This document shows positions 834 through 45,877 of a DNA stretch of 64,000 nucleotides, piece by piece (position 1 is the first letter of the stretch; each line of letters starts with the position of its first letter). The stretch comes from Candidatus Portnoybacteria bacterium RIFCSPLOWO2_01_FULL_43_11 (GTDB lineage: Bacteria > Patescibacteriota > Minisyncoccia > Portnoybacterales > UBA2143), in assembly GCA_001819605.1 (NCBI GenBank), contig MHNE01000008.1:13054-77053 (forward strand), given 5' to 3'. Made by a program: the position numbers and the translations under genes. The notes under the pieces are model-generated. The model did not search any database. It was not told the origin of the DNA and saw only the letters and a list, made by a program, of their open reading frames with translations.

Positions 834-2606
834 TTATTCGTGATTTTTCAAATCCACAATCTTCATCTGTAAGTCCCGTCTTCCGTTCCATTCGTCCACT
901 ATAAATTTAAAAACTACATCAATTTTATCGCCTGTTTTAAATCCCTTTATTTTTTCTCCCAAACCAAAACCAATGGCTTTTATTCTTTTAATTAATTTTG
1001 ACTGATGAAGCGCCGCGGTCAATTCCAGCTTTAAATGTTTTCCGTTATTGCCTACCACTTTTATATCGCTAATTTCTAGCCCTCGGACTAAAAATTTTGG
1101 CTCGGGGTTGGCTTGACCAAAAGGAGCGAAAGATTGAATCTGGTCGTAATTTTTAAAAGACATTTCATCTGCTGAAAGTTGGCTGTCAATTTCTAAGACG
1201 GGTTTTAAGTCTTCGTCTTTGAGTCCTTGATCGGCTATGGTTGAAATTAGTTTTTTGAACGGTTCTAAATTTTTTCTTAAAATATTAAAACCGGCGGCGC
1301 CGGGATGACCGCCAAAATCATTTAATAAATCAGCGCCCTTTGAAATTGCTTCAATTATATTAAATTGAGGGATACTTCGGCAAGAAGCAAGAATAAATTC
1401 TTTGTCTAAATGAAAAATAATGCTCGGCCGGTGGTATTTTTCACTGATTTTACCGGCCGCCAATCCAACCACGCCAGCCGGCCACCCCTCGTCTCCTTCA
1501 ATAATAATTTTATTAAGTTTGGAAGAATGATTTAACCGCCTTTCTATTTCCCGAATAACCCTATCTACCAGCTGTTGTCTCTGACGATTAAGCATATCTA
1601 AATGTTTGGCTATGTCTTCCGCTTCTTTCTTTGATTCAGTCATTAAAAGCTGATAAGCGGTGTTGGCGTGGTCAAGCCGATAAGCGACATTAAGCCGAGG
1701 CGCTAAAACAAAACCAAGAGAATAAGCGTCAAGATTCGTAGAAGGCGGCTCGCCGTTTAAAGAATGCTTGGTTATAGCCGGATTCAACCGGGCTATCTTC
1801 ATCAGTTCCTGAAGCCCGATTCTTTTAGTTTGAGCTAAAACTCCTAAACCGTATTTAACCAAGGTTCTGTTTTCTCCGACCAAAGGCATAACATCGGCGA
1901 TAGTGGCTAAGGCAACTAAATCCAAAAACCATTTTTCGCTCTCTTCTTTATAATAAATATTTTTAGAAACACTCTGGTAATTACTTTTTAAAAGAGCTTG
2001 AGCCAGTTTAAAAGCAACGCCGGCGCCGGCTAAGTCTTTAAAAGGATATTTATCGCCGGGCTGATGCGGATTTACGATAACTTTAGCCGCTGGCATTTTT
2101 TTTAGACAGCGGTGATGGTCAACTATAATAAATTCCGCTCCCAAGGAATTAGCCAATTTCACTTCTTTGACATTAGTGATGCCGCAATCTAAAGTAATAA
2201 TCAGTTGCGTCCCCTGACTTATTAATTCCTTAATCGCTTCTGATTTTAAGCCATGGCCTTCTCTGTTTCTGTCAGGAATATAGATATTTAAGTTTTTAGC
2301 CCCGATTCTTCTTAAAGCGGTCATTAAAATAGCGCTTGAAGAAACTCCGTCCGCGTCATAGTCTCCGTAAACTGCTATTTTTTCCTGTTTTTTAACGGCT
2401 TTCAAAATCCGACTAACCGCTTTTTTCATTCCCTTAAATAAAAATGGGTCATGAAGATCCTGCTCGTAATCAGAATTAAAAAACTCATCTATTCGCGGTT
2501 GAGTTTTTAATTCCCGATTATATAAAAGCCGTAAAACCAAAGGGCTGTATTCGGGAAATTGTTTAATAAAATTTTCCGGCGCTTTCGGTTTAAGGTGCCA
2601 GTTCAT
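834..2606 (-). CDS. recJ: single-stranded-DNA-specific exonuclease RecJ (DHH family); ORF extends to 2726 but the likely start is M at 2606
   Basis: DHH/DHHA1 motifs (AVYGDYDADGVSS, DHH, GHGL); about 590 aa. Confidence 0.85.
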   Translation of the reverse strand: MNWHLKPKAPENFIKQFPEYSPLVLRLLYNRELKTQPRIDEFFNSDYEQDLHDPFLFKGMKKAVSRILKAVKKQEKIAVYGDYDADGVSSSAILMTALRRIGAKNLNIYIPDRNREGHGLKSEAIKELISQGTQLIITLDCGITNVKEVKLANSLGAEFIIVDHHRCLKKMPAAKVIVNPHQPGDKYPFKDLAGAGVAFKLAQALLKSNYQSVSKNIYYKEESEKWFLDLVALATIADVMPLVGENRTLVKYGLGVLAQTKRIGLQELMKIARLNPAITKHSLNGEPPSTNLDAYSLGFVLAPRLNVAYRLDHANTAYQLLMTESKKEAEDIAKHLDMLNRQRQQLVDRVIREIERRLNHSSKLNKIIIEGDEGWPAGVVGLAAGKISEKYHRPSIIFHLDKEFILASCRSIPQFNIIEAISKGADLLNDFGGHPGAAGFNILRKNLEPFKKLISTIADQGLKDEDLKPVLEIDSQLSADEMSFKNYDQIQSFAPFGQANPEPKFLVRGLEISDIKVVGNNGKHLKLELTAALHQSKLIKRIKAIGFGLGEKIKGFKTGDKIDVVFKFIVDEWNGRRDLQMKIVDLKNHE

Positions 2607-2611
2607 AAAAA

Positions 2612-3778
2612 TTATTTTAGGGCTTCTATGCCCGGCAATTTCTCGCCAGCCAAAAATTGAAGCATGGCTCCGCCACCGGTGGAGATATGGCTGATTTTTT
2701 CTGTTAAACTTAACTGGCTCAAACAATTCACAGTGTCTCCGCCGCCAACTAAAGAAAAAGCCGAGCTTTGAGCAATGGCTTTTGCTATTTCTTTTGTTCC
2801 TTGAGTAAATTTCTCCGTTTCAAAAAGGCCCATCGGACCATTCCAAATAATTATTTTGGCCTGACTGATAATCCTTTTAAAAAGCTCAATAGTGTCCGGC
2901 CCAATATCTAAAATCATTTCTTCTTTTTGGGTATTGCCAACCGGGGCCACCCTGCTCGGAGCTTGACCGCTTGAATCAACAGAAACAACAACATCTACCG
3001 GAATATGAAGTTTAATATTAGTCAGCTCTAATTTTTGTACTTCCTCTACCATTTCTTCCTCAACGATTGACTTACCAATGGCCAGTCCCTTGGCACCGAT
3101 AACCGTATTGGCCAAAGCGCCGCCCAAAATTAAATCATCTGCCTTATCTAAAAAGTTCTTAATCATTTTAATTTTAGTGGAAATTTTCACTCCCCCAATT
3201 ATCACCGTTAACGGATGTTCGGGTTTCTCTAAAAGAGTAGAAAGAACTTTAACTTCTTTTTCCAAAAGTAAACCAGCGCAACTAGGTAAATATTTAGGCA
3301 GACCAACAAATGAAGCATGAGCCCGATGACTTGTGCCAAAGGCATCGTTGACATATATTTCGCCTAATTTAGCCAAACCCCGAATAAAATCTTCCTGATT
3401 ATTTTTTTCTCCCGGATAAAAACGGATGTTTTCTAATAAAATAATTTCTCCTTTTTGAAGAGCTTTCAACCTTTCTTCGACTTCCCGGCCAAGACAGTCA
3501 TCCAATTTAATAACGGGTCGGCCCAAAAGTTCTTCTAATCTTTGAGCGATTGGATTTAAACGCAAGTTCTCTATAATTTTGCCCTCGGGTCTTCCAAGGT
3601 GAGCTAAAAGAATGATTTTAGCTTTTTGGTTTAATAAATAATTTATAGTCGGAAGAGTTGCTTTTAGGCGCCAATCTTCTTTATCATCAACTCGTCCATC
3701 ATCGCCAAAAGAAACATTAAAATCAGCCCGAACCAGAACGCGTTTATTATAAAAATTAAAATCGCGGAGAAATTTCAT
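2612..3778 (-). CDS. pgk: phosphoglycerate kinase
   Basis: Full-length PGK-like sequence (RADFNV, GGGA motifs); 388 aa. Confidence 0.9.
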   Translation of the reverse strand: MKFLRDFNFYNKRVLVRADFNVSFGDDGRVDDKEDWRLKATLPTINYLLNQKAKIILLAHLGRPEGKIIENLRLNPIAQRLEELLGRPVIKLDDCLGREVEERLKALQKGEIILLENIRFYPGEKNNQEDFIRGLAKLGEIYVNDAFGTSHRAHASFVGLPKYLPSCAGLLLEKEVKVLSTLLEKPEHPLTVIIGGVKISTKIKMIKNFLDKADDLILGGALANTVIGAKGLAIGKSIVEEEMVEEVQKLELTNIKLHIPVDVVVSVDSSGQAPSRVAPVGNTQKEEMILDIGPDTIELFKRIISQAKIIIWNGPMGLFETEKFTQGTKEIAKAIAQSSAFSLVGGGDTVNCLSQLSLTEKISHISTGGGAMLQFLAGEKLPGIEALK

Positions 3779-4553
3779 AAACTCCTTTTACTATTCTTAT
3801 AAACTCGCTCGCATTAAGAGAGGCTCCTCCCACCAATAGCCCGTTCATTCCGGCTTTTTTAATGTAATCAGAGCTATTTTTGGCCGTCACGCTTCCGCCG
3901 TAAAGAATTTTTATTTCTTCGGCCAGCCGGCGGCTGTAGAGTTTGCTTAAAATTTTTTTAATAAATAATCTGGCCTGCATTGCCTCGTCAGAAGAACAGG
4001 AAACCCCGTTATTGGAACTAATGGCCCAAACCGGTTCATAAACAATAATTACATCGTTTATTCGATTGGAAGAAATACCCGCGACAGCTTTCTCTAATTG
4101 CTCTTGAACAATTAAATTCATTTCATTGAGCTGTTTCCCCTCTGAATCAAAAGTATCCTTCGTCTCTTCGCCAAGGCAAAAAATCGGCTTAAGCCGCGCT
4201 TTTAGAGCCGCTTTAATTTTTTTATTAATTATTTCGTCTGTTTCGCCGAAATATCTGCGTCTTTCAGAATGGCCGACAATAACGTACTGACAGCCTAAAT
4301 CTTTTAACATCAAAGGGGAAACTTCGCCGGTAAAAGCGCCTTTCTGCTCCCAGTGGCAATCTTGAGCGCCTAAAATAAAATTTAAAGTCTTAAGATTAAA
4401 ACCCGATAAATAAATATACGGCGGGCAAATAACGACTTCAATATCTTTTGTCAGTTTAATTCCGCCATTGATAACTTTTAAAAGATGCTCCGCTTCTTTT
4501 CTGGTAAGGGGATTGCACTTCCAATTGGCGATGATTAGTGTTTTTTTGTCCAT
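3756..4553 (-). CDS. tpiA: triosephosphate isomerase
   Basis: IANWKCN, GHSERR and YGGS signature motifs. Confidence 0.9.
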   Translation of the reverse strand: MDKKTLIIANWKCNPLTRKEAEHLLKVINGGIKLTKDIEVVICPPYIYLSGFNLKTLNFILGAQDCHWEQKGAFTGEVSPLMLKDLGCQYVIVGHSERRRYFGETDEIINKKIKAALKARLKPIFCLGEETKDTFDSEGKQLNEMNLIVQEQLEKAVAGISSNRINDVIIVYEPVWAISSNNGVSCSSDEAMQARLFIKKILSKLYSRRLAEEIKILYGGSVTAKNSSDYIKKAGMNGLLVGGASLNASEFIRIVKGVYEISPRF

Positions 4554-35667: not shown

Positions 35668-37238
35668 TGCCCATACTTTCTCAACCAACCGAAGAACTTA
35701 TCCAGGAATTTAAAAGATTTATTTTGACCAAGCCGGAAGAAGGCTCAACTATTCATGTTGACTACATTGCCAGCAAAGTAGCCAGTTTTTACGAACGGAT
35801 CAGAAAGATTTTAGATTATCAGGAAGAACATCTTCTTAGAAAAAATGCCATTGACCGCATGCTTAAAAGAAGATTAATTCTTCAGACAAATAATAAAGGC
35901 GGAATGGCCGAATCTCTAATCTGCGAACTAATCAGGGCCGGCTATCTGCCAAACGACGCCATTCCTGAAAGCGAAATCGGGGCCGTGGAATTAATTATCA
36001 GTAAATATGTATTCCTTATTGATGCTTCGGCTGATCTGCCTCAAAAACAAAGAGAAGGAACATTCAATTGGCTGATTAGCTTGGCCTCTTGCGAGATTGA
36101 AGAAAAATTAGCCCCCCCTCATAAAGACCAAGCCTTGGCTGATTATATGTACGCGGTAATCAAAGAAAGAATCGTTTTAAGAAATACGAATTTAAACCAG
36201 GATGAAAAAGATACGCAAGTCTTTATCGCCATTCAAAAAGCGCTTCTTCGAACTGATCGCGCTTTATTGAATTACCGGCTCCTTAAGTGGCACTATCCCG
36301 AATGGACTCAAACAGACCAGCAGTTTTTAACTGAAATAATCCCTCAAATCGCTTCTATAAAACTTGCCCTATCCCAAAAAATAGATCATCCTTTAGGGCC
36401 AAAATTCTTTAAAATCTGCAATCAATACAACACTCCTTATCTCGTTTTGGGCGATGTGCTTTTGGAAAATTCTGACGCCTTAAATCAGCCGGAAAGACTG
36501 GAAGATTTAATCAAAGAAGCCTATCAGGAAAGGTATAAACGTTCTAAAAATAAATTGCGCCGGGCCGCTGTTTTAAGCACTCTTTCTATTTTTGTGACTA
36601 AAATACTTTTGGCCTTGGCCATTGAAGTGCCCTTTGATCTTTATATCGCCCATCAGCTTATTCTTCTTAATCTCGGCATTAATATTCTCTTTCCTCCTCT
36701 TTTAATGTTTTTAATCGTTAAAAGCATCAAGCCGCCAAAAGAGGAAAACGCGCAAAAGGTCGTTTTGGAAGTAATGAAAATAACCTATCAGACAAAAACT
36801 CAAGACCAATATGAAATAAAAACAGTTGTTGAAAGGAACGTATTTTTAAGAGGAATAATTAACCTGTTCTATCTAATTACATTCCTCGTCACTTTTGGTT
36901 TAATTATTTGGGCGTTGGATAAACTAAATTTCAGTTGGCTAAGTATGGTTATTTTCCTTGTTTTTATCTCTTTAATCTGCTTTGCCGGCTTGAGAATCCG
37001 CCAACGTTCCAAAGAATTAAGCGTGGAAAAAGAAAAAGAGAGCGGCTGGGTCTTCTGGATTGAACTTTTCGCCTTGCCTTTAGTCCGCGTAGGCAAATGG
37101 CTGTCAAATCAATGGACGCGGTTTAACATATTAGTGGTTATTTTTGATTTAATTTTGGAAGTGCCATTTCAAATTTTTGTGCAATTTTTAGAAAATTGGC
37201 GCCGCTTTCTTAAGGAGAAAAAAGAAGAAATACAATAA
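35667..37238 (+). CDS. hypothetical protein with a soluble N-terminal domain and C-terminal TM helices, translationally coupled to thrS and atpB
   Basis: 523-aa ORF whose start overlaps the thrS stop and whose end overlaps the atpB start. Confidence 0.45.
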   Translation: MPILSQPTEELIQEFKRFILTKPEEGSTIHVDYIASKVASFYERIRKILDYQEEHLLRKNAIDRMLKRRLILQTNNKGGMAESLICELIRAGYLPNDAIPESEIGAVELIISKYVFLIDASADLPQKQREGTFNWLISLASCEIEEKLAPPHKDQALADYMYAVIKERIVLRNTNLNQDEKDTQVFIAIQKALLRTDRALLNYRLLKWHYPEWTQTDQQFLTEIIPQIASIKLALSQKIDHPLGPKFFKICNQYNTPYLVLGDVLLENSDALNQPERLEDLIKEAYQERYKRSKNKLRRAAVLSTLSIFVTKILLALAIEVPFDLYIAHQLILLNLGINILFPPLLMFLIVKSIKPPKEENAQKVVLEVMKITYQTKTQDQYEIKTVVERNVFLRGIINLFYLITFLVTFGLIIWALDKLNFSWLSMVIFLVFISLICFAGLRIRQRSKELSVEKEKESGWVFWIELFALPLVRVGKWLSNQWTRFNILVVIFDLILEVPFQIFVQFLENWRRFLKEKKEEIQ

Positions 37239-37936
37239 TGGAAATTCATTTATCAGCCGAAGAAATCTTCGGCTTAAAAAATTTTAATATTACCAATACG
37301 CTGATACTATCCTTTGTTATCACATTGGGCTTTTTGTTTTTTTCTAAAATAATTTCTTCCCGACTGAAGCTTGTTCCCTTAAGATGGCAGAATTTTTTTG
37401 AGGCCCTAATTGAAACGATTCTTAATTTTATGGAAAGTGTCTTGGAAGACAAAAAAAAGGCCAGAAAATTTTTCCCCTTAGTGGCGACTATCTTTATTTT
37501 TGTTATTCTTTCCAATTGGCTGGAAGTTCTGCCGGGCCTCGGCAGTATTTTCCTGCGCTCTCCAAGCAGCGACCTAAACTTTACCTTGGCTATCGCCATA
37601 TCAGCCGTTATCAGCATCCAAGTCTTTGGTATTTTAAGCATTGGTTTCATTAAATACGGCAAACGTTTTATAAATTTTTCAAGTCCGATTAATTTTTTTG
37701 TCGGTATTTTAGAAATAATCAGCGAAGCGGCCAAGATTATTTCTTTTTCTTTCCGGCTTTTTGGCAACATCTTTGCCGGCGAAGTGCTTTTAATCGTCGT
37801 CTATTTTTTAGCGCCCTATATTCTCCCCCTGCCTTTTATGTTTTTGGAAATATTTGTCGGCTTTATCCAAGCCTTGGTTTTTTCAATGCTCACTTTGGTT
37901 TTCCTAAAAATTGCCACCGTTGAAGTTGAACATTAA
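37238..37936 (+). CDS. atpB: ATP synthase F0 subunit a
   Basis: Conserved RLFGNIFAGE with the essential Arg; multi-TM. Confidence 0.85.
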   Translation: MEIHLSAEEIFGLKNFNITNTLILSFVITLGFLFFSKIISSRLKLVPLRWQNFFEALIETILNFMESVLEDKKKARKFFPLVATIFIFVILSNWLEVLPGLGSIFLRSPSSDLNFTLAIAISAVISIQVFGILSIGFIKYGKRFINFSSPINFFVGILEIISEAAKIISFSFRLFGNIFAGEVLLIVVYFLAPYILPLPFMFLEIFVGFIQALVFSMLTLVFLKIATVEVEH

Positions 37937-38077
37937 GCTTGATTTTCGTAATGAAATCAGTATAATTAAAACAACGAAGGTCGTATAAATTAAATCAAAA
38001 TTCAAATCCCAAAAATCAAAATGTAATTTTAAATTTTATTTTTGCATTTTGATTTTTACATTTTGAATTTTTTTATC

Positions 38078-38305
38078 ATGGACATAGAATCAATCAAACT
38101 CTTAGCTTCGGCTATGGCTATAGTCGGCGGCTCTATCGGCCCGGCCCTAGCTATCGGCTGGCTGGCAGGAAAAGCAATGGACGCCATTGGCAGAAATCCG
38201 GAGGCGTCATCCAAAATTCAGACTTCAATGATTTTAGCCATCGCTTTTGCCGAAGCCATTGCCATTTACGCGCTGGTTATCGCGCTGATTATTAAGTTTG
38301 TTTAG
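38078..38305 (+). CDS. atpE: ATP synthase F0 subunit c
   Basis: Two-helix proteolipid with GPALAIG...AIAFAEAIAIYALVIAL (conserved carboxylate E). Confidence 0.85.
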   Translation: MDIESIKLLASAMAIVGGSIGPALAIGWLAGKAMDAIGRNPEASSKIQTSMILAIAFAEAIAIYALVIALIIKFV

Positions 38306-38331: not shown

Positions 38332-38838
38332 ATGGAACTCTTACTGGAAAAACTTGGCCTTGAGCCGCATATTCTTCTTGCTCAAATAATTAATTTTTTG
38401 ATTCTAATTTTTGTTTTGCGCAGATTTCTATACAAACCTTTAATTAAATTTTTAGACAAAAGAAAAGACATTATTGAAAAAGGATTAAATGACGCTCAAA
38501 AAGCCAAAGAGGAATTAAGTAAAATCCAGACTATAAAAGAAGAAAAAATTATTGAGGGTGAAAGAGAAGCTGATAAAATCATAGAAAAATCCAAAAAAAC
38601 GGCCGAACAAAAAAGCGGCTTGATTTTAAAAGAAACGCAGGAAAAATCCGAAGGCATAATCAAAGAAGCGAAACAAATGGCCGAAGAAGAAAAAAAGGAA
38701 GCCAAGCAAAAACTCAAAGAAGAAATTCGCGATTTGGTCTTTCTCGTCTCTTCCAAAATTTTGGAAAAAAATATCGGCCAGAAAGAAAATGAAGAGATTA
38801 TAAATCAGCAATTGAATTTATTGAATAAGAAAGTTTAA
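38332..38838 (+). CDS. atpF: ATP synthase F0 subunit b
   Basis: N-terminal TM followed by a long charged coiled-coil; position in the operon. Confidence 0.8.
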   Translation: MELLLEKLGLEPHILLAQIINFLILIFVLRRFLYKPLIKFLDKRKDIIEKGLNDAQKAKEELSKIQTIKEEKIIEGEREADKIIEKSKKTAEQKSGLILKETQEKSEGIIKEAKQMAEEEKKEAKQKLKEEIRDLVFLVSSKILEKNIGQKENEEIINQQLNLLNKKV

Positions 38839-38853
38839 TTCATATTTTTTACT

Positions 38854-38934
38854 ATGCCCATCAAAGAATTTTTTAGACCGACAAATAAATCAACTTTATA
38901 TTGGCTCATTTTGGGAGCGGTGGTTAAATTTTAA
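38854..38934 (+). pseudogene. 26-codon remnant duplicating the 5' end of the gene at 40113 (part of the 63-bp direct repeat 38863-38925 = 40122-40184)
   Basis: 62/63-nt identity: aaagaattttttagaccgacaaataaatcaactttatattggctcattttgggag[c/t]ggtggtt. Confidence 0.7.
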
Positions 38935-39037
38935 ATTGTAATTTTTAACTTTTCCACTCTGCTAGTTTTTAAATTTACTGTTTCATTTTTTGTTTCAAAA
39001 TGATACAATTACGAATAATATATGATACAATTAAATC

Positions 39038-40111
39038 ATGGAAAAAGTTTATAAATTAACTAAACGACAACTAAATATCCTTGAATTTATCAAAAAAAAT
39101 GGTGGAGCAAGCAATCAGGAAATTAAAAACCGCCTTAAAGAAACTTTTGAAGACATCTCAAGAATTACAATAGTCCGCGACATTAATCTCCTTTTAAAAA
39201 ATAAGCTAATAGATAGAAAGGGTAAGGGAAGAAATGTCCGCTATGAAGAATTTATAAAAAGCGCGGTTTTAGCTTATTTTGATGTTGAGGAATATTTTAA
39301 AAAAGGGCCAGATGAAAGAAAGTTGACTTTTGAATATTTTAATTTTAGGATATTTAGCCAGTTTAAGGAAATTTTCACAGAAGAAGAACTAAAAAATTTA
39401 AAGACGCTAAACGACGGCTACAAAAAAAGAATCAAGAAACTATCGCCCGCGATTTTAAAAAAAGAGTTTGAAAGATTAACCATTGAATTAAGCTGGAAAT
39501 CATCTCAAATTGAAGGAAATACCTACTCTTTGATAGATACGGAGATTCTTATAAAAGAACATAAAGAAGCTGAAGGTCATAAAAAAGAAGAAGCGATAAT
39601 GATTTTAAACCATAAAAAAGCGCTGGATTATATTCTAAACAAAAAAAGCGACTTTAAAAAAATAAATCTGCGAAAAATTGAAAACATACAAAATTTAATA
39701 GTTGACAATCTTGGAATATCAAAAGGAATTAGGAAAAAACTGGTTGGAATCGTGGGGACAAGATACAAGCCGTTAGACAATGAATATCAAATCAAAGAAG
39801 CCTTAGAAAAAATGATAAAAATTATAAACAATTTTAAAGAACCGTTTTCTAAGGCGCTCGCGGCGATTCTGATGATTTCATATATCCAGCCGTTTGAAGA
39901 CGGCAATAAACGAACCGCTCGGCTTTTAGGCGACGCTTTGCTTTTAGCTTACGGCGCCTGTCCCCTTTCTTTCAGAAGCGTTAATGAAACGGACTACAAG
40001 AAAGCGGTAATTATTTTTTACGAACAGAATAGCGCGAGATTTTTCAAAGAATTATTCATCCAGCAATTTGAATTCGCAATTAAAAACTATTTTCTGTTAG
40101 AAAATCAATAA
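39038..40111 (+). CDS. HTH (winged-helix, DeoR-like) - Fic/DOC family protein with a degenerate Fic motif (QPFEDGNKRTAR)
   Basis: N-terminal HTH (LNILEFIKKNGGASNQEI...ITIVRDINLL). C-terminus IQPFEDGNKRTAR corresponds to the canonical HPFx(D/E)GNGRxxR with H->Q and G->K. Confidence 0.7.
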   Translation: MEKVYKLTKRQLNILEFIKKNGGASNQEIKNRLKETFEDISRITIVRDINLLLKNKLIDRKGKGRNVRYEEFIKSAVLAYFDVEEYFKKGPDERKLTFEYFNFRIFSQFKEIFTEEELKNLKTLNDGYKKRIKKLSPAILKKEFERLTIELSWKSSQIEGNTYSLIDTEILIKEHKEAEGHKKEEAIMILNHKKALDYILNKKSDFKKINLRKIENIQNLIVDNLGISKGIRKKLVGIVGTRYKPLDNEYQIKEALEKMIKIINNFKEPFSKALAAILMISYIQPFEDGNKRTARLLGDALLLAYGACPLSFRSVNETDYKKAVIIFYEQNSARFFKELFIQQFEFAIKNYFLLENQ

Positions 40112-40112
40112 T

Positions 40113-40802
40113 ATGAATCTAAAAGAATTTTTTAGACCGACAAATAAATCAACTTTATATTGGCTCATTTTGGGAGTGGTGGTTTTGGTTGCGGGAGGAG
40201 TAATTTGGTGGAGTTGGAATATAACTTCAAAAATCACTGATAGTGAACCTTTGGTTATTCCGAAAACAGAACTCAAAAATAATCAACCTATTGACACTTC
40301 AACTTGGAAAACTTATCGGAATGAGAAGTATGGGTTTGAGGTAAAATATCCGGAAGATTTCACAATTAACGAACGTCTTGGCGGTGGAGAGCAAAATCCA
40401 AACGCCGTTTACTTTAGATCAAAAAGCGATGATTTTTTTATAAAGATTGATAATGGTTATCAAGAGGTAGATCTACTTCCTTTCAAAGACTATGCTATGC
40501 AAATATCTAAAAATGCTTGCGACGCAGATGGTCCAAGCAGTTCTATGCATTGTGAAGAGATATCCGAACTTTCTCCTTTTAATGACATTCGAGTGGCACC
40601 AGCTTATGAAATTTATTTGAATGAAATTATACAAATGCGGGGCAAAAGTAATACACAAAGAACAAAAGGACCAATCATAGCCATCGACATAAGTATTCAC
40701 ACACAAGGTTTGACTAGAGGATTATTTATAAATTTACAAGGTAGCTCTAATAATGAAGAGATGATTAAAAAAATAGCTGCTACCTTTAAATTTATAGAAT
40801 AA
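40113..40802 (+). CDS. hypothetical secreted or membrane-anchored protein (N-terminal TM/signal anchor)
   Basis: 229 aa; hydrophobic segment LYWLILGVVVLVAGGVIWW followed by a soluble domain containing Cys residues. Confidence 0.5.
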   Translation: MNLKEFFRPTNKSTLYWLILGVVVLVAGGVIWWSWNITSKITDSEPLVIPKTELKNNQPIDTSTWKTYRNEKYGFEVKYPEDFTINERLGGGEQNPNAVYFRSKSDDFFIKIDNGYQEVDLLPFKDYAMQISKNACDADGPSSSMHCEEISELSPFNDIRVAPAYEIYLNEIIQMRGKSNTQRTKGPIIAIDISIHTQGLTRGLFINLQGSSNNEEMIKKIAATFKFIE

Positions 40803-40879
40803 TTTTTACCTTGTTAAATAGTCGCAAAGCGAATTTAACGGGGTGAATTTTAAAATTATTGGTTACTCGTCACTTATTT

Positions 40880-41326
40880 ATGCGATACACTTCAAAACAA
40901 TACGCCAAAGCGCTTTGGGAAGTTTGGGAGGAAAAATCGCCGGATAAAAGAACGGCGGTTTTGGGCAGGTTTATAAAACTTCTGAAAAAACAAAGGGCGA
41001 TGAAAAAACTGGACTTTATTATCCAAGAGCTTGAAAAAATTTATTTAATAAAGAATAATTTATTAAAAGCCGGAATAACAGCCCCTTTCCCGCCTTCTAA
41101 GATATCGCTTGAACGGATTAAAAAACTTGTCCCGCATCTTTTTACGGCACAGCAAAAAGGTGCGGGATTTATTTCTTCTTTTTATAAACATCGGCCTGAT
41201 AAAATTATTTTAGAACAAAAAATTGATAAAAATCTAATCGGCGGATTTCAAATTAAAGTAAACGATTATTTAATAGACGGGAGCGTTAGAAATATGTTGG
41301 TAAAATTAAAAAAAACTAATCTATGA
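40880..41326 (+). CDS. atpH: ATP synthase F1 delta subunit (OSCP)
   Basis: YAKALWEV N-terminus and C-terminal [10 protein letters not shown] pattern; lies immediately upstream of atpA. Confidence 0.7.
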
Positions 41327-42839: not shown

Positions 42840-43799
42840 ATGGCTCTCAACACTAAAGACATCAAAAGAAGAAGAAAATCAATTTCCAATATTGGCCAGA
42901 TTGCCAAAGCAATGGAGGTTGTTTCAGTGACTAAAATGAGACGAAGCCAAGCTATCGCTTTGGCTACGCGTCCTTATACCCGTGAAGCAATGGAGATTTT
43001 AAAAACCATCAGCCAGAGAACAGACCCGGCTTTTTCTTATTTCTTGGAGCAGAGGCCGGAACAAAAAATAGCCGTCTTGCTTATAAGCGCCGACAAAGGA
43101 CTATGCGGCGGATTAAACAGCAATATTTTCCGTAAAACAGAAGAGATTTTAAACCAACACCCGGATTCTCAAATTGATTTTGTGGTTATTGGCAAAAAAG
43201 GAGCTGAATGGTGCGAGAGGAAAAAATTAAATGTCATAAAATCTTTTTTTAGTTTCGGCGACTATGTTGATTTTGAACAAACCGCGCCGGTTTCGGAATT
43301 TATCATTAATATTTTTAGAGCCCGAAAACACGACGCGGTCTTCGCAATTTACACAAATTTTTTAAGCGCCTTAAAACAGGAAGCAACCGCTAAACTGATT
43401 CTCCCTTTAAAAGAAGAAAGTTTAAAAGAAATAATCACCTCTATCGTGCCGACTTACGGCAGATTCGCCAGTGTAAATCACGGAGAACCGTTCTCCGTTT
43501 TAACGGAGAACGGTTCTCCGCTAGATAAAAAGTTTAAATGGGAATTTGAATATAAATTTGAGCCGGATATAAAAATCATTTTAGACGACCTTTTGTATAA
43601 TTTAACGCAGGTGGAAATTTATTATGTGATTTTGGAAAGCAACGCTTCCGAGCATTCGGCCAGAAGAATGGCTATGAAAAACGCTTCTGACAACGCGGAA
43701 AACATTATCAAAGACTTAAATTTGCTCTATAATAAAGCCAGACAAGCGGCCATCACTCAAGAAATCAGCGAAATCGCCGCCGGAAGCGGCGGGGTATAA
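42840..43799 (+). CDS. atpG: ATP synthase F1 gamma subunit
   Basis: N-terminal IKRRRKSISNIGQIAKAMEVVS and C-terminal ITQEISEI.AG motifs. Confidence 0.85.
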   Translation: MALNTKDIKRRRKSISNIGQIAKAMEVVSVTKMRRSQAIALATRPYTREAMEILKTISQRTDPAFSYFLEQRPEQKIAVLLISADKGLCGGLNSNIFRKTEEILNQHPDSQIDFVVIGKKGAEWCERKKLNVIKSFFSFGDYVDFEQTAPVSEFIINIFRARKHDAVFAIYTNFLSALKQEATAKLILPLKEESLKEIITSIVPTYGRFASVNHGEPFSVLTENGSPLDKKFKWEFEYKFEPDIKIILDDLLYNLTQVEIYYVILESNASEHSARRMAMKNASDNAENIIKDLNLLYNKARQAAITQEISEIAAGSGGV

Positions 43800-45183: not shown

Positions 45184-45432
45184 ATGAACAATTTTCTCTT
45201 AAAAATCATCGGTCTCAAAGAGACCCTTTTTGACGGAAGGGCGGTTTCGGTTAATCTTCCCTCTTCCGAGGGCGAACTGACTATTTTAAAAGACCATTTG
45301 CCTTTAATTACCGCCCTAAAAAGAGGTAAAATTAAAGTTAGAGACGAAAACAATCAGGAACATCTTTTTGAAATTCAAAGAGGTTTTTTAGAAGTTAACC
45401 CGAATAAAGTGACCATTTTAAAACATGAATAA
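45184..45432 (+). CDS. atpC: ATP synthase F1 epsilon subunit
   Basis: 82 aa beta-sandwich N-domain (L.I..P...F.G.V..V..P...GE..IL.H); position in the operon. Confidence 0.75.
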   Translation: MNNFLLKIIGLKETLFDGRAVSVNLPSSEGELTILKDHLPLITALKRGKIKVRDENNQEHLFEIQRGFLEVNPNKVTILKHE

Positions 45433-45877
45433 CCACTCCCATAAATTGCCACAGGCCATAGTTCTTTCCTGCATTGATTTTCGTTTTCACGAAAAATTAA
45501 AGCGGGCGCTAAAAAAGGAAAAAATAAATTCTTATGACCTAATATGCTTGGCCGGCGGAGCGAAAAATCTGGTGAGTCCGAATAAAAAAATTTATCAACA
45601 GATTGTCATTGATAACATTAAGCTGGCTCAAAAACTTCACAAAATAAAAACGGTTGTTTTGTGTAATCACATAGACTGCGGCGCTTACTTGCCCGCCGAC
45701 TTGTCCGCCAAAGCTTCAGCGTCGGCGGAAGTATTGGCGCAGACGGGCGGCGGCAGCAGTCAATTCAAAAATCAAAACGAAGAAACAAAGTTCCATCAAG
45801 CTGAACTAAAAAAAGCGGGGAATTTATTAAAAAAATTGTTTCCTGCTTTAAGAATAAAAGTTATCTTGCTGGAGTAG
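45425..45877 (+). CDS. beta-class carbonic-anhydrase-like protein
   Basis: CIDFR and HIDCGA resemble the beta-CA CxDxR / HxxCG zinc-ligand motifs; overlaps the atpC stop. Confidence 0.45.
   Translation: MNNHSHKLPQAIVLSCIDFRFHEKLKRALKKEKINSYDLICLAGGAKNLVSPNKKIYQQIVIDNIKLAQKLHKIKTVVLCNHIDCGAYLPADLSAKASASAEVLAQTGGGSSQFKNQNEETKFHQAELKKAGNLLKKLFPALRIKVILLE

Follow-up and report, generated by a model that had tools for sequence, protein, structure and literature searches.

Why is the ATP synthase operon of a Candidatus Portnoybacteria genome from groundwater split by accessory DNA, and is the nearly perfect 63-bp direct repeat that brackets a Fic gene there the scar of that gene's arrival? Few classical mobile elements are known from Patescibacteria, whose genomes are tiny, and the ways in which these bacteria acquire and trade accessory genes are poorly understood. 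The locus lies in a stretch of 64,000 nucleotides, called the window below, where an islet has atpB, atpE and atpF on its upstream side and atpH and atpA on its downstream side. Its features are as follows.

38332..38838, + strand: atpF (ATP synthase b subunit), the final operon gene ahead of the islet (Pfam ATP-synt_B, 81 bits).
38839..40879, + strand: accessory islet of 2041 bp within the atpF-atpH spacer, delimited by comparison with L037 and L202/L203.
38854..38953, + strand: apparent stub of a leader-bearing PsbP-like gene, containing repeat copy 1 (38863-38925), recognized by its match to the state B stub and the L198 3′ UTR.
38967..39037, + strand: Fic promoter/operator block, conserved at loci with 57-84% identical Fic.
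39038..40111, + strand: HTH-Fic gene, 357 aa (Pfam Fic, PF02661, 45.7 bits against a cut-off of 24, E = 1.2e-11).
40113..40802, + strand: 229-aa membrane-anchored PsbP-like gene with repeat copy 2 (40122-40184) at its 5′ end, identified by ORF and signature.
40177..40879, + strand: population-polymorphic segment, the body of the 229-aa gene with its own 3′ UTR, defined by the state B contigs.
40880..41326, + strand: atpH (delta subunit), where the operon resumes (Pfam OSCP, 54.6 bits).

The extent of the insertion is given by relatives with an empty site. Nucleotide homology between the window and L037, a sister species (84% identical in atpF, 92% in atpA and 86% in atpG), stops at 38832 and picks up again at 40879, and the atpF-atpH spacer is 33 nt long in L037 and 3 nt in L202/L203. 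Since atpF adjoins atpH in these two related lineages, the entire block 38839-40879, with the stub, the HTH-Fic gene and the 229-aa gene, is an insertion. The order atpBEFHAGDC with atpF next to atpH is kept in L037, L202 and other loci, whereas 2041 bp lie between the two genes in the window, and the atpE-atpA span is 3.0 kb here versus 0.8-1.5 kb at more than 60 other loci. The initial annotation, which saw atpB-E-F parted from atpH-A-G-D-C by accessory DNA, is therefore correct on this point. It had also allowed that atpF might be followed directly in relatives by either atpH or the 229-aa gene; the former is the case at the empty sites and the latter is not. Indeed, the 229-aa gene cannot be regarded as a native neighbour of the operon, being missing from the empty-site relatives and present or absent within the population (state B contigs L012, L016 and L017). 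No leader sequence whatever is found at the empty sites.

The islet is co-oriented with the operon, and no terminator-like site was found across 38839-40879. Transcription of atpH-atpC would thus be possible by read-through, and also from the Fic promoter, which may be how accessory DNA within one of the most conserved operons is apparently tolerated.

The repeat itself is as the initial annotation described it. Between the segments 38863-38925 and 40122-40184, 62 of 63 positions agree, the exception being a C/T difference at 38918/40177, and similarity reaches weakly back to 38850/40109 (76 nt, 91%), the ATG standing in the same register in both copies. The downstream copy opens the 229-aa ORF at 40113-40802, the upstream copy forms part of a 26-codon remnant reading MPIKEFFRPTNKSTLYWLILGAVVKF*, and the 357-aa HTH-Fic ORF, preceded by its own twofold TGATACAATTA sites, is the only gene between the copies. 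A search for further copies of the 63-mer, proposed at the same time, revealed none beyond these two within the 64-kb window; the 55-nt core of the repeat occurs exactly twice there, against zero expected from 100 shuffles. We also asked whether the repeat belongs to a described family of RNAs or folds into a structure; Rfam gave no match, and the folding z-scores were -0.25 and -0.63.

That the two copies were created in assembly, by a repeat-mediated mis-join or by two strains collapsed into one contig, deserves attention because several assemblies break exactly within copy 2 (contigs L018, L019 and L026-L028 all stop at 40176) and short bubble contigs exist (L008-L010), which indicates that assemblers struggle at this place. 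However, the two-copy arrangement is found again at 99.6-100% identity in NCBI MAGs, JGI assemblies and MEGAHIT assemblies of ENA, made with different assemblers from more than 10 samples, and this recurrence excludes an artefact for practical purposes. The 63-nt repeat is also shorter than the final k of 141, and both population states contain unique sequence beyond what a mis-join could create; such an origin is hardly credible.

What the repeat consists of became clear from the genes on its two sides: the Fic gene is flanked by two related surface-protein genes, one of them reduced to a stub, and the repeat is the leader that they have in common. The surviving 229-aa protein has a hydrophobic N-terminal segment and the signature WKTYRNEKYGFEVKYP...TFKFIE. 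It matches Pfam PsbP_2 at 5e-4 with 20.6 bits, under the cut-off of 27, and many homologues with the WKTYxNxxYGF...STFKF signature carry PF18933, a PsbP-like extracytoplasmic domain family. The leader is common to several paralogous genes (P0005, P0007 and the gene in L198) at 85-95% nucleotide identity, and is therefore a family module rather than a unique target sequence. A wider role as a widespread N-terminal module was considered and dropped, as most short high-identity matches turned out to fall on WKTYRNEKYGF, a signature inside the domain, and the leader itself is found in few proteins.

In the 26-codon ORF at 38854-38934, 72 nt of leader are followed by part of a D-type 3′ UTR. This stub is also found in the downstream position, in the co-existing haplotype called state B, where 55 nt of stub tail stand in place of 40177-40879 and the flanks are 99.7-100% identical to the window (contigs L012, L016 and L017). 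The upstream stub and this downstream stub are identical at 83 of 83 positions and have the same junction. The tail of the state B stub aligns with the 3′ UTR that follows the intact 295-aa gene in L198 (z 7.7; 0/500 shuffles) and does not match the UTR of the 229-aa gene (z 0.07). By these alignments, the stub is a leader gene whose body has been deleted: the upstream PsbP-like gene would have lost its whole body, so that the leader was joined out of frame to the 3′ UTR and a 26-codon ORF was left.

The 229-aa gene is present or absent within a near-clonal population. The backgrounds of states B and C are 99.7-100% identical, and their sole differences lie between 40177 and the ATG of atpH. 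In L198, of which the available sequence begins inside Fic, the order is Fic, an intact 295-aa leader gene, the D-type UTR and atpH; the D-type UTR adjoins atpH in L222 and L197 as well. The order Fic-leader gene-atpH thus appears from sequence comparison to be older than the stub. The leader gene upstream of Fic is, on similar grounds, apparently old too: the atpF-Fic spacer of L117 consists of a leader start (z 6.0) and a 229-type UTR (z 8.7), an MPI-type start immediately 3′ of atpF being common to the window and L117 (17/19, z 6.0), and in L029 an intact 292-aa leader gene lies directly 5′ of a Fic region that is 91% identical in DNA.

Because the Fic-leader gene-atpH order would predate the stub, the present repeat points to recent recombination of the flanking paralogues, not to an original insertion scar. 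Our main reading, to which we give a probability of roughly 65%, is that the islet is made of a Fic cassette flanked by two leader-bearing PsbP-like genes and that the repeat stems from a recent exchange between these paralogues. The HTH-Fic cassette would be a self-contained unit, about 1.15 kb long and including a promoter and palindromic operator of its own, and the two membrane-anchored genes, one on each side, would share a 5′ leader of roughly 70 nt coding for the signal anchor. Recent exchange between the copies, by gene conversion or by duplication of the stub, rather than recent arrival of Fic, would account for the near perfection of the repeat. The downstream position would be the exchange point, where homology is provided by the leader on the left and by the atpH start on the right, and recombination, probably following DNA uptake, would have placed the stub, the 229-aa gene or the 295-aa gene in a single slot of close relatives; the window, with the 229-aa gene, would carry a derived allele. 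The stub may have come to stand upstream of Fic through gene conversion or duplication, or because the cassette was re-inserted.

The identity of the two copies has a sharp boundary: the start-codon zone has 5 mismatches in 9 positions, versus 0 in 83 in the core (p = 2.6e-6). A diverged start zone beside an identical core may be produced by homology-facilitated illegitimate recombination, and preferential gene conversion of repeat centres fits it equally well.

The initial annotation took the repeat for the trace of a duplicative insertion or recombination. A direct footprint of Fic insertion would mean that a leader already in place received the cassette and that 63-100 nt of this leader were duplicated in the process, whether through repair of breaks with a wide stagger or through Campbell-type integration of a circle that had a single copy of the leader. 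Such a history is unlikely in our estimation, yet it draws on several observations. State B has exactly the layout target-cassette-target, bordered by native sequence at either outer edge, and the lengths between the repeats and the position of the right copy fit other repeat-bracketed Fic loci, where the repeats are arbitrary pieces of target and the bracketing is enriched (10/67 vs 4/570, p = 6e-8; see below). On the other hand, the duplicated unit holds a species-specific deletion junction, one formed in the downstream position, and Fic is already linked in L198, a diverged lineage, to atpH and an intact leader gene, and in L117 to atpF. Over their first 9 nt the copies disagree at 5 positions and the next 83 are identical, which suggests a later exchange and not a simple duplication, and the leader is wholly absent from the empty sites. 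A gapped exact pattern run on JGI metagenome contigs matched neither the predicted pre-insertion allele, atpF-single stub-atpH without Fic, nor any other intermediate that lacks Fic and has just one stub or one 229-aa gene, and Fic is present in all 22 of the 22 contigs examined in exact atpF contexts of the same species. Thus the earlier proposal stands as far as a recombination footprint in the broad sense is concerned, and bracketing repeats are indeed enriched in this Fic family, but the evidence speaks against the upstream copy having arisen by target duplication on the arrival of Fic.

A slot with exchangeable contents might also be the site of programmed surface-protein variation of the pilin or shufflon type, in which bodies are swapped behind a constant signal-anchor leader. 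At least three bodies (none, 229 aa and 295 aa) stand behind one leader in one slot of close relatives, the same leader is paired with different bodies elsewhere (292 aa in P0005 and 135 aa in P0007) while keeping 85-95% of its nucleotides among paralogues, and the proteins are predicted to be extracytoplasmic. We nevertheless consider this improbable, as a recombinase is absent in or beside the islet, the window holds no silent-cassette array and only two leader copies per 64 kb, a dead stub is among the alternatives, and the differences in state that were demonstrated are between genomes rather than inside a clone; the data are explained by ordinary homologous recombination.

The Fic protein at the centre of the islet is non-canonical. 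A winged helix occupies about aa 5-72 at its N-terminus (weak profile matches), and the inhibitory motif SSQIEG lies N-terminal of the core in the same chain, as is the case for class II Fic proteins; SS[QRKH]IEG is kept in all 120 of 120 Fic matches. The core motif QPFEDGNKRTAR, starting at 39887, departs from the canonical AMPylating motif HxFx(D/E)GNGRxxR in that the catalytic His is absent: its Gln is aligned to the catalytic His of FICD, the chains of which match at E = 5e-8. The QPFxDGNKR core is unchanged in 106/120 homologues and at 79/80 loci. With His replaced by Gln and the second Gly by Lys throughout the family, AMPylation as in SoFic or FICD is doubtful. Among PADLOC profiles, SoFic matches at 4e-18 (63.8 bits) and PDC-S04 at 9e-17; none of the NCBIfam models reached its cut-off against HTH-Fic, and no small partner gene beside Fic is conserved across loci.

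Degenerate TAATTGTTTCA-type sites lie near 38975-38997 in the promoter/operator block, followed by TGATACAATTA at 39001-39011, which includes an extended -10, and again at 39023-39033; TAATTGTATCA is the exact reverse complement of TGATACAATTA. TGnTACAAT is seen at 54/70 Fic loci, and the block of L029 is 91% identical to that of the window. The N-terminal HTH probably binds this palindromic operator, which is conserved throughout the family, and represses its own gene.

The family is very large, with more than 8000 database clusters and 63-100% identity among the matches listed. It shows horizontal mobility among Patescibacteria, and related Fic genes adjoin varied housekeeping genes, such as atp, S10 ribosomal, uvrA, rpoD-tRNA and mur genes. 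Direct repeats bracket 10 of 67 related Fic genes, versus 4 of 570 controls (odds ratio about 25, p = 6e-8). They are 25-78 nt or, at the widest, 25-83 nt long and different at each locus, being derived from the 5′ ends of uvrA, GT2 or livH-like genes, the 3′ ends of upstream genes, a promoter or terminator hairpins. The length between them is 1095-1182 nt at 10 of 11 loci (L183 has 1424), the window giving 1176 and 1196, and the right copy begins 0-27 nt past the Fic stop at most loci.

From this pattern, HTH-Fic(QPFxDGNKR) and its operator might constitute an undescribed small mobile cassette of about 1.1-1.2 kb that duplicates 25-100 nt of its target without transposase, integrase or inverted ends. 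We put this forward only tentatively, and the same applies to the idea that the cassette passes from one lineage to another and inserts at gene boundaries, in many cases within or beside core operons. No transposase is encoded, Fic being the sole ORF between the repeats, no recombinase ORF is present within the islet, and no terminal inverted repeats linking the cassette ends were found. Targeting of tRNA genes in the manner of integrative elements was considered and rejected, a tRNA lying next to Fic in just 3 of 60 loci, as was recent transposition, the exact Fic proteins P0154 and P0195 each occurring in a single context (13-19 contigs). Only one Fic is encoded in the 64-kb window, and the L031 Fic beside an S10 operon, tried as a second copy in the same genome, was discarded because the window's own S10 ribosomal proteins are 39-65% identical. 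A search of the literature on Fic in Patescibacteria or CPR atp operons gave nothing relevant and no prior description.

The locus is of interest in that surface-protein genes are swapped among near-identical genomes via a common coding leader, next to a strongly conserved, horizontally transferred Fic family without the catalytic histidine that is frequently bracketed by long target duplications. If these duplications arise at insertion, the cassette is mobile without a known mobility enzyme, which would imply a new insertion mechanism (staggered-break repair, template switching or a trans-acting factor) or a part of the non-canonical Fic itself in mobility. If true, it would provide a concrete system in which to study gene gain in uncultivated bacteria and to ask what function a histidine-less Fic protein has.

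Among known systems, SoFic is a toxic Fic protein with a role in abortive infection and a small downstream antitoxin (PMC12249575). HTH-Fic resembles SoFic and the class II Fic proteins (FICD-like AMPylases; PDC-S04) in its Fic fold by Pfam, in SSQIEG, which conforms to (S/T)xxxE(G/N), in the attached winged helix and in being a single-gene module at variable genomic spots. It differs in having QPFxDGNKRxxR instead of the HPFx(D/E)GNGRxxR of SoFic and FICD, and in possessing an N-terminal HTH and no conserved small downstream partner gene.

The Doc (death-on-curing) kinase toxins of the Fido superfamily have the motif HxFx(D/N)(A/G)NKR, and the Lys in the N-K-R part is shared by HTH-Fic. Unlike Doc, HTH-Fic has neither the His nor a Phd-like antitoxin gene; it possesses the inhibitory motif of class II and an HTH domain, at a length of about 357 aa.

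The Fic cassettes, with locus-specific repeats of 25-83 nt, recall IS1634/IS1549, which make long target duplications of variable length. Those elements have a DDE transposase and terminal inverted repeats and multiply within genomes, whereas the Fic cassette has neither transposase nor inverted ends and each exact copy occurs in a single context; of the hallmarks of an insertion sequence, only target-derived direct repeats are present. The islet does not resemble an integrative element either, having no recombinase and no fixed att target, and its repeats are locus-specific.

The islet also resembles replacement-type islands, flexible islets exchanged by homologous recombination between conserved flanks: near-identical genomes have alternative contents in one slot with conserved anchors on either side, sister species lack the islet, and assemblies fragment at its borders. 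It differs from them in that its slot is within a core bioenergetic operon and in that one anchor is the cargo family's own 5′ coding leader.

The two direct 63-bp copies noted in the initial annotation lie at 38863-38925 and 40122-40184 and differ by a single mismatch (62/63 positions equal). Within the 64 kb there are exactly two occurrences of their 55-nt core, against 0 expected by chance, and an ATG stands nine bases 5′ of each copy in identical register. The copies lie in an islet between atpF and atpH, arranged as follows.

37238-37936, atpB, upstream of the islet (Pfam)
38042-38305, atpE, upstream of the islet (Pfam)
38332-38838, atpF, upstream of the islet (Pfam)
39038-40111, HTH-Fic gene, 357 aa, between the repeat copies (Pfam)
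40113-40802, 229-aa ORF, sub-threshold Pfam match to PsbP_2 only
40880-41326, atpH, downstream of the islet and followed by atpA (Pfam)

This layout was recovered at 99.6-100% identity from two NCBI MAGs (Candidatus Portnoybacteria, Rifle aquifer), JGI assemblies and many ENA MEGAHIT assemblies, and an assembly artefact is therefore ruled out. An Rfam search and folding gave no RNA family or structure that would account for the repeat. No terminator-like site was found within the islet (38839-40879), and its genes share one orientation, so that transcription would be expected to read through it. Further downstream, a 150-aa Pro_CA_2 gene (putative carbonic anhydrase-like; 45425-45877) overlaps the end of atpC, is present in all same-species contigs and is apparently transcribed together with the atp genes.

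With the gamma subunit as query and one genome per species, 80 atp loci were collected. In a sister species (L037; 84, 92 and 86% identical to the window in atpF, atpA and atpG, respectively), a 33-nt spacer separates atpF from atpH, and nucleotide homology with the window ends at 38832 and restarts at 40879. The corresponding spacer is 3 nt in a Hainich relative (L202/L203; atpH 73%), and the stretch from atpE to atpA, 3.0 kb in the window, measures 0.8-1.5 kb in over 60 further loci. Therefore, the entire 2041 bp (38839-40879) are accessory, the 229-aa gene included, and constitute an insertion relative to sister lineages. The empty sites agree with the initial proposal that accessory DNA splits the atp operon, but the inserted block is larger than was proposed; the 229-aa gene, once taken as a native neighbor, is missing from the spacers of both relatives.

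Other insertions were encountered in these loci. L037, which is without the Fic islet, carries a 2.9-kb insertion of its own (1474-4351) between a 523-aa gene and atpB; it encodes an N-terminally anchored protein of 821 aa, and in the window the two flanking genes abut at 37238. L197 (ERZ4903125 k141_1813389, 460-1340) has an atpH 94% identical to that of the window, but two genes, a 23S_rRNA_IVP-family member (123 aa) and one of 130 aa, come next where window-type atpH overlaps atpA; this is another insertion point within the operon, distinct from that of the islet. Inserts between atpA and atpG, of 5.4 kb in L038 (Ryanbacteria MHNO01000009.1, 2561-8001) and 2.0 kb in L040 (VMFT01000008.1, 4330-6361), contain matches to the PsbP-like domain signature. 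Accessory DNA within atp operons may be recurrent in Patescibacteria. In L003 (GCA_001819655.1, MHNG01000010.1, 8728-10232), atpG is called as two overlapping pieces of 211 and 295 aa, and about 560 bp (window 42864-43423) occur twice by BLAST, probably as a scaffolding duplication of that assembly.

Exact look-ups of the Fic protein revealed three contigs (L012, L016, and L017) where atpH comes after Fic without the 229-aa gene, in flanks 99.7-100% identical to the window. In this arrangement, state B, the downstream copy of the leader (the ~70-nt 5′ coding start, a signal anchor, common to a family of membrane-anchored PsbP-like genes, in which the repeat sits) runs on as ...GGGAGCGGTGGTTAAATTTTAAATTGTAATTTTGGCTTTTCATTTTTAACTTTTGACTTCTT-ATG(atpH), forming a second 26-codon stub equal to the upstream copy at 83/83 positions. 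Several contigs stop exactly at 40176, the point where state B diverges from the window's allele, state C; short bubble contigs bear the 229-aa gene alone, and Fic is on all contigs with this exact atpF. Within the species, Fic is fixed and the variable part is the body of the downstream gene, which undergoes allelic exchange between two limits, the leader and the start of atpH. Homologous recombination following DNA uptake would be the likely route. The upstream stub (window 38946) is without 13 nt, GGCTTTTCATTTT, present in the state-B downstream stub (L012 5772-5784); this indel has ATTTT at both sides, as slippage would give.

In a Rifle relative (L198-L201; atpH 80%), the 3′ end of Fic is followed by an intact 295-aa gene starting with MNLKQFFRPTNKSILYWLILGAVV, a 3′ UTR and atpH. 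From the stop codon on, the state-B stub tail aligns with this UTR (z 7.7; 0/500 shuffles) and not with that of the 229-aa gene (z 0.07). Therefore, the stub is a leader gene of that kind whose whole body was deleted, so that the leader runs out of frame into its own UTR. Contigs of two closer relatives, L222 (atpH 97%) and L197, begin with the same kind of UTR leading into atpH; hence this junction is ancestral, and state C, which has the 229-aa gene and another UTR, is the derived state. Because the upstream copy in the window bears the same deletion junction, it received its sequence from the stub once the deletion had occurred, by copying or conversion (presumably gene conversion or duplication). 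Directly after the ATG, the two copies are mismatched at 5 of 9 bases, followed by 0 mismatches in the next 83 (p = 2.6e-6), a step that is a sharp recombination boundary. The repeat is a recombination footprint, as first suggested, but in its present form it is younger than the Fic insertion.

In the more diverged L117 (atpB 79%, atpF 69%, Fic 84%), Fic likewise directly follows atpF, and the spacer between them is made up of the start of a leader (17/19, z 6.0) and, fused to it, a UTR like that of the 229-aa gene (z 8.7); another gene that has lost its body occupies this position. Two further truncated leader ORFs lie 3′ of Fic (4219-4480), an MPI-type one joined to the duplicated last 15 nt of Fic and a short leader-like one reading MTFKKTNKKLWL*, and are the trail of past recombination events. 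In L029, an intact 292-aa leader gene (P0005) lies immediately 5′ of the Fic region, whose DNA is 91% identical to that of the window, within an array of similar genes next to an MNT/HEPN pair. At least five arrangements of the same modules were found, with L029 counted separately. Leader genes have long flanked Fic on both sides, and the 63-bp repeat is best explained as the leader that the Fic-flanking paralogues share, recently homogenised, rather than as the scar of Fic arrival. MNT/HEPN or HepT-type toxin-antitoxin genes lie near several Fic cassettes and PsbP-like arrays (L029 1038-1734; L034/L035; L120 3416-3850), which hints that such spots collect defence or addiction modules.

The Fic protein has more than 8000 database relatives; identity ranges from 63 to 100% among the 120 matches listed, which represent many Patescibacteria classes. 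In a survey of 80 metagenomic loci (51-84% identity), contexts were non-syntenic and often housekeeping: uvrA, Mur ligase, rpsS and rplD (S10 operon), rpoD with tRNA-Asn, GT2, and a LivH-like permease. Cassettes within or bordering the S10 operon of other lineages include L136 (925-2741, upstream of rpsS, with a 37-nt flanking repeat) and L031/L119 (1416-4268; in L031, 5′ of rplD). The window and L031 share 80% identity in Fic but just 39-65% in five ribosomal proteins, which indicates horizontal transfer. Bracketing repeats are family-wide as well: locus-specific direct repeats of 25-78 nt flank Fic in about 11/67 testable loci, with an excess (10/67) over a control of 570 equally spaced sequence pairs drawn at random from these loci (4/570; odds ratio about 25, p = 6e-8). 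They are arbitrary pieces of the target, namely 5′ ends of downstream genes (uvrA, GT2, livH-like), 3′ ends of upstream genes, a promoter and terminator hairpins. The inter-repeat length is 1095-1182 nt in 10 bracketed loci and 1424 nt in L183, compared with 1196 nt in the window and 1176 nt in state B. Neither transposase nor integrase was found among the ORFs, nor inverted repeats at the cassette ends; adjacent tRNAs are rare, and two exact Fic proteins, followed over 13-19 contigs, each gave one context and no second. Therefore, the cassette is mobile over evolutionary time, not proliferating.

The paired TGATACAATTA upstream of Fic, reported initially, was found again as a feature of the whole family. 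TAATTGT(T/A)TCA sites are followed by a first TGATACAATTA (their reverse complement, overlapping an extended -10) and by a second before the start codon; TGnTACAAT occurs in 54/70 loci. This conservation makes the pair most likely an autoregulatory operator, through which the HTH domain would control its own gene. The core motif QPFxDGNKR is found in 79/80 loci and in 111 of the 120 matches listed (106 exactly QPFEDGNKR), and reads QPFEDGNKRTAR in the window (39887-39922). Gln, aligned onto the catalytic His of FICD, replaces that residue, and a Doc-like Lys is present. The motif change, together with a conserved class II inhibitory motif, SS[QR]IEG, suggests a conserved, non-AMPylating function.

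No NCBIfam model scored above cut-off for the Fic protein, and the nearest PADLOC models are SoFic and PDC-S04. SoFic acts as an AMPylating toxin in abortive infection and is paired with a small antitoxin (PMC12249575). In the present protein, the lack of the His speaks against such chemistry. No prior description of Fic in Patescibacteria or CPR atp operons was found in the literature. Long, variable duplications (8-514 bp), without a mechanistic model, have been described for IS1549/IS1634 (PMC2266710), the only precedent that was found; those elements encode transposases, unlike the Fic cassette, and it is a real possibility that the cassette is a new type of mobile element. The known kinds at this site are the flexible islet and the Fic-type cassette, and the locus is rated as a variant of both.
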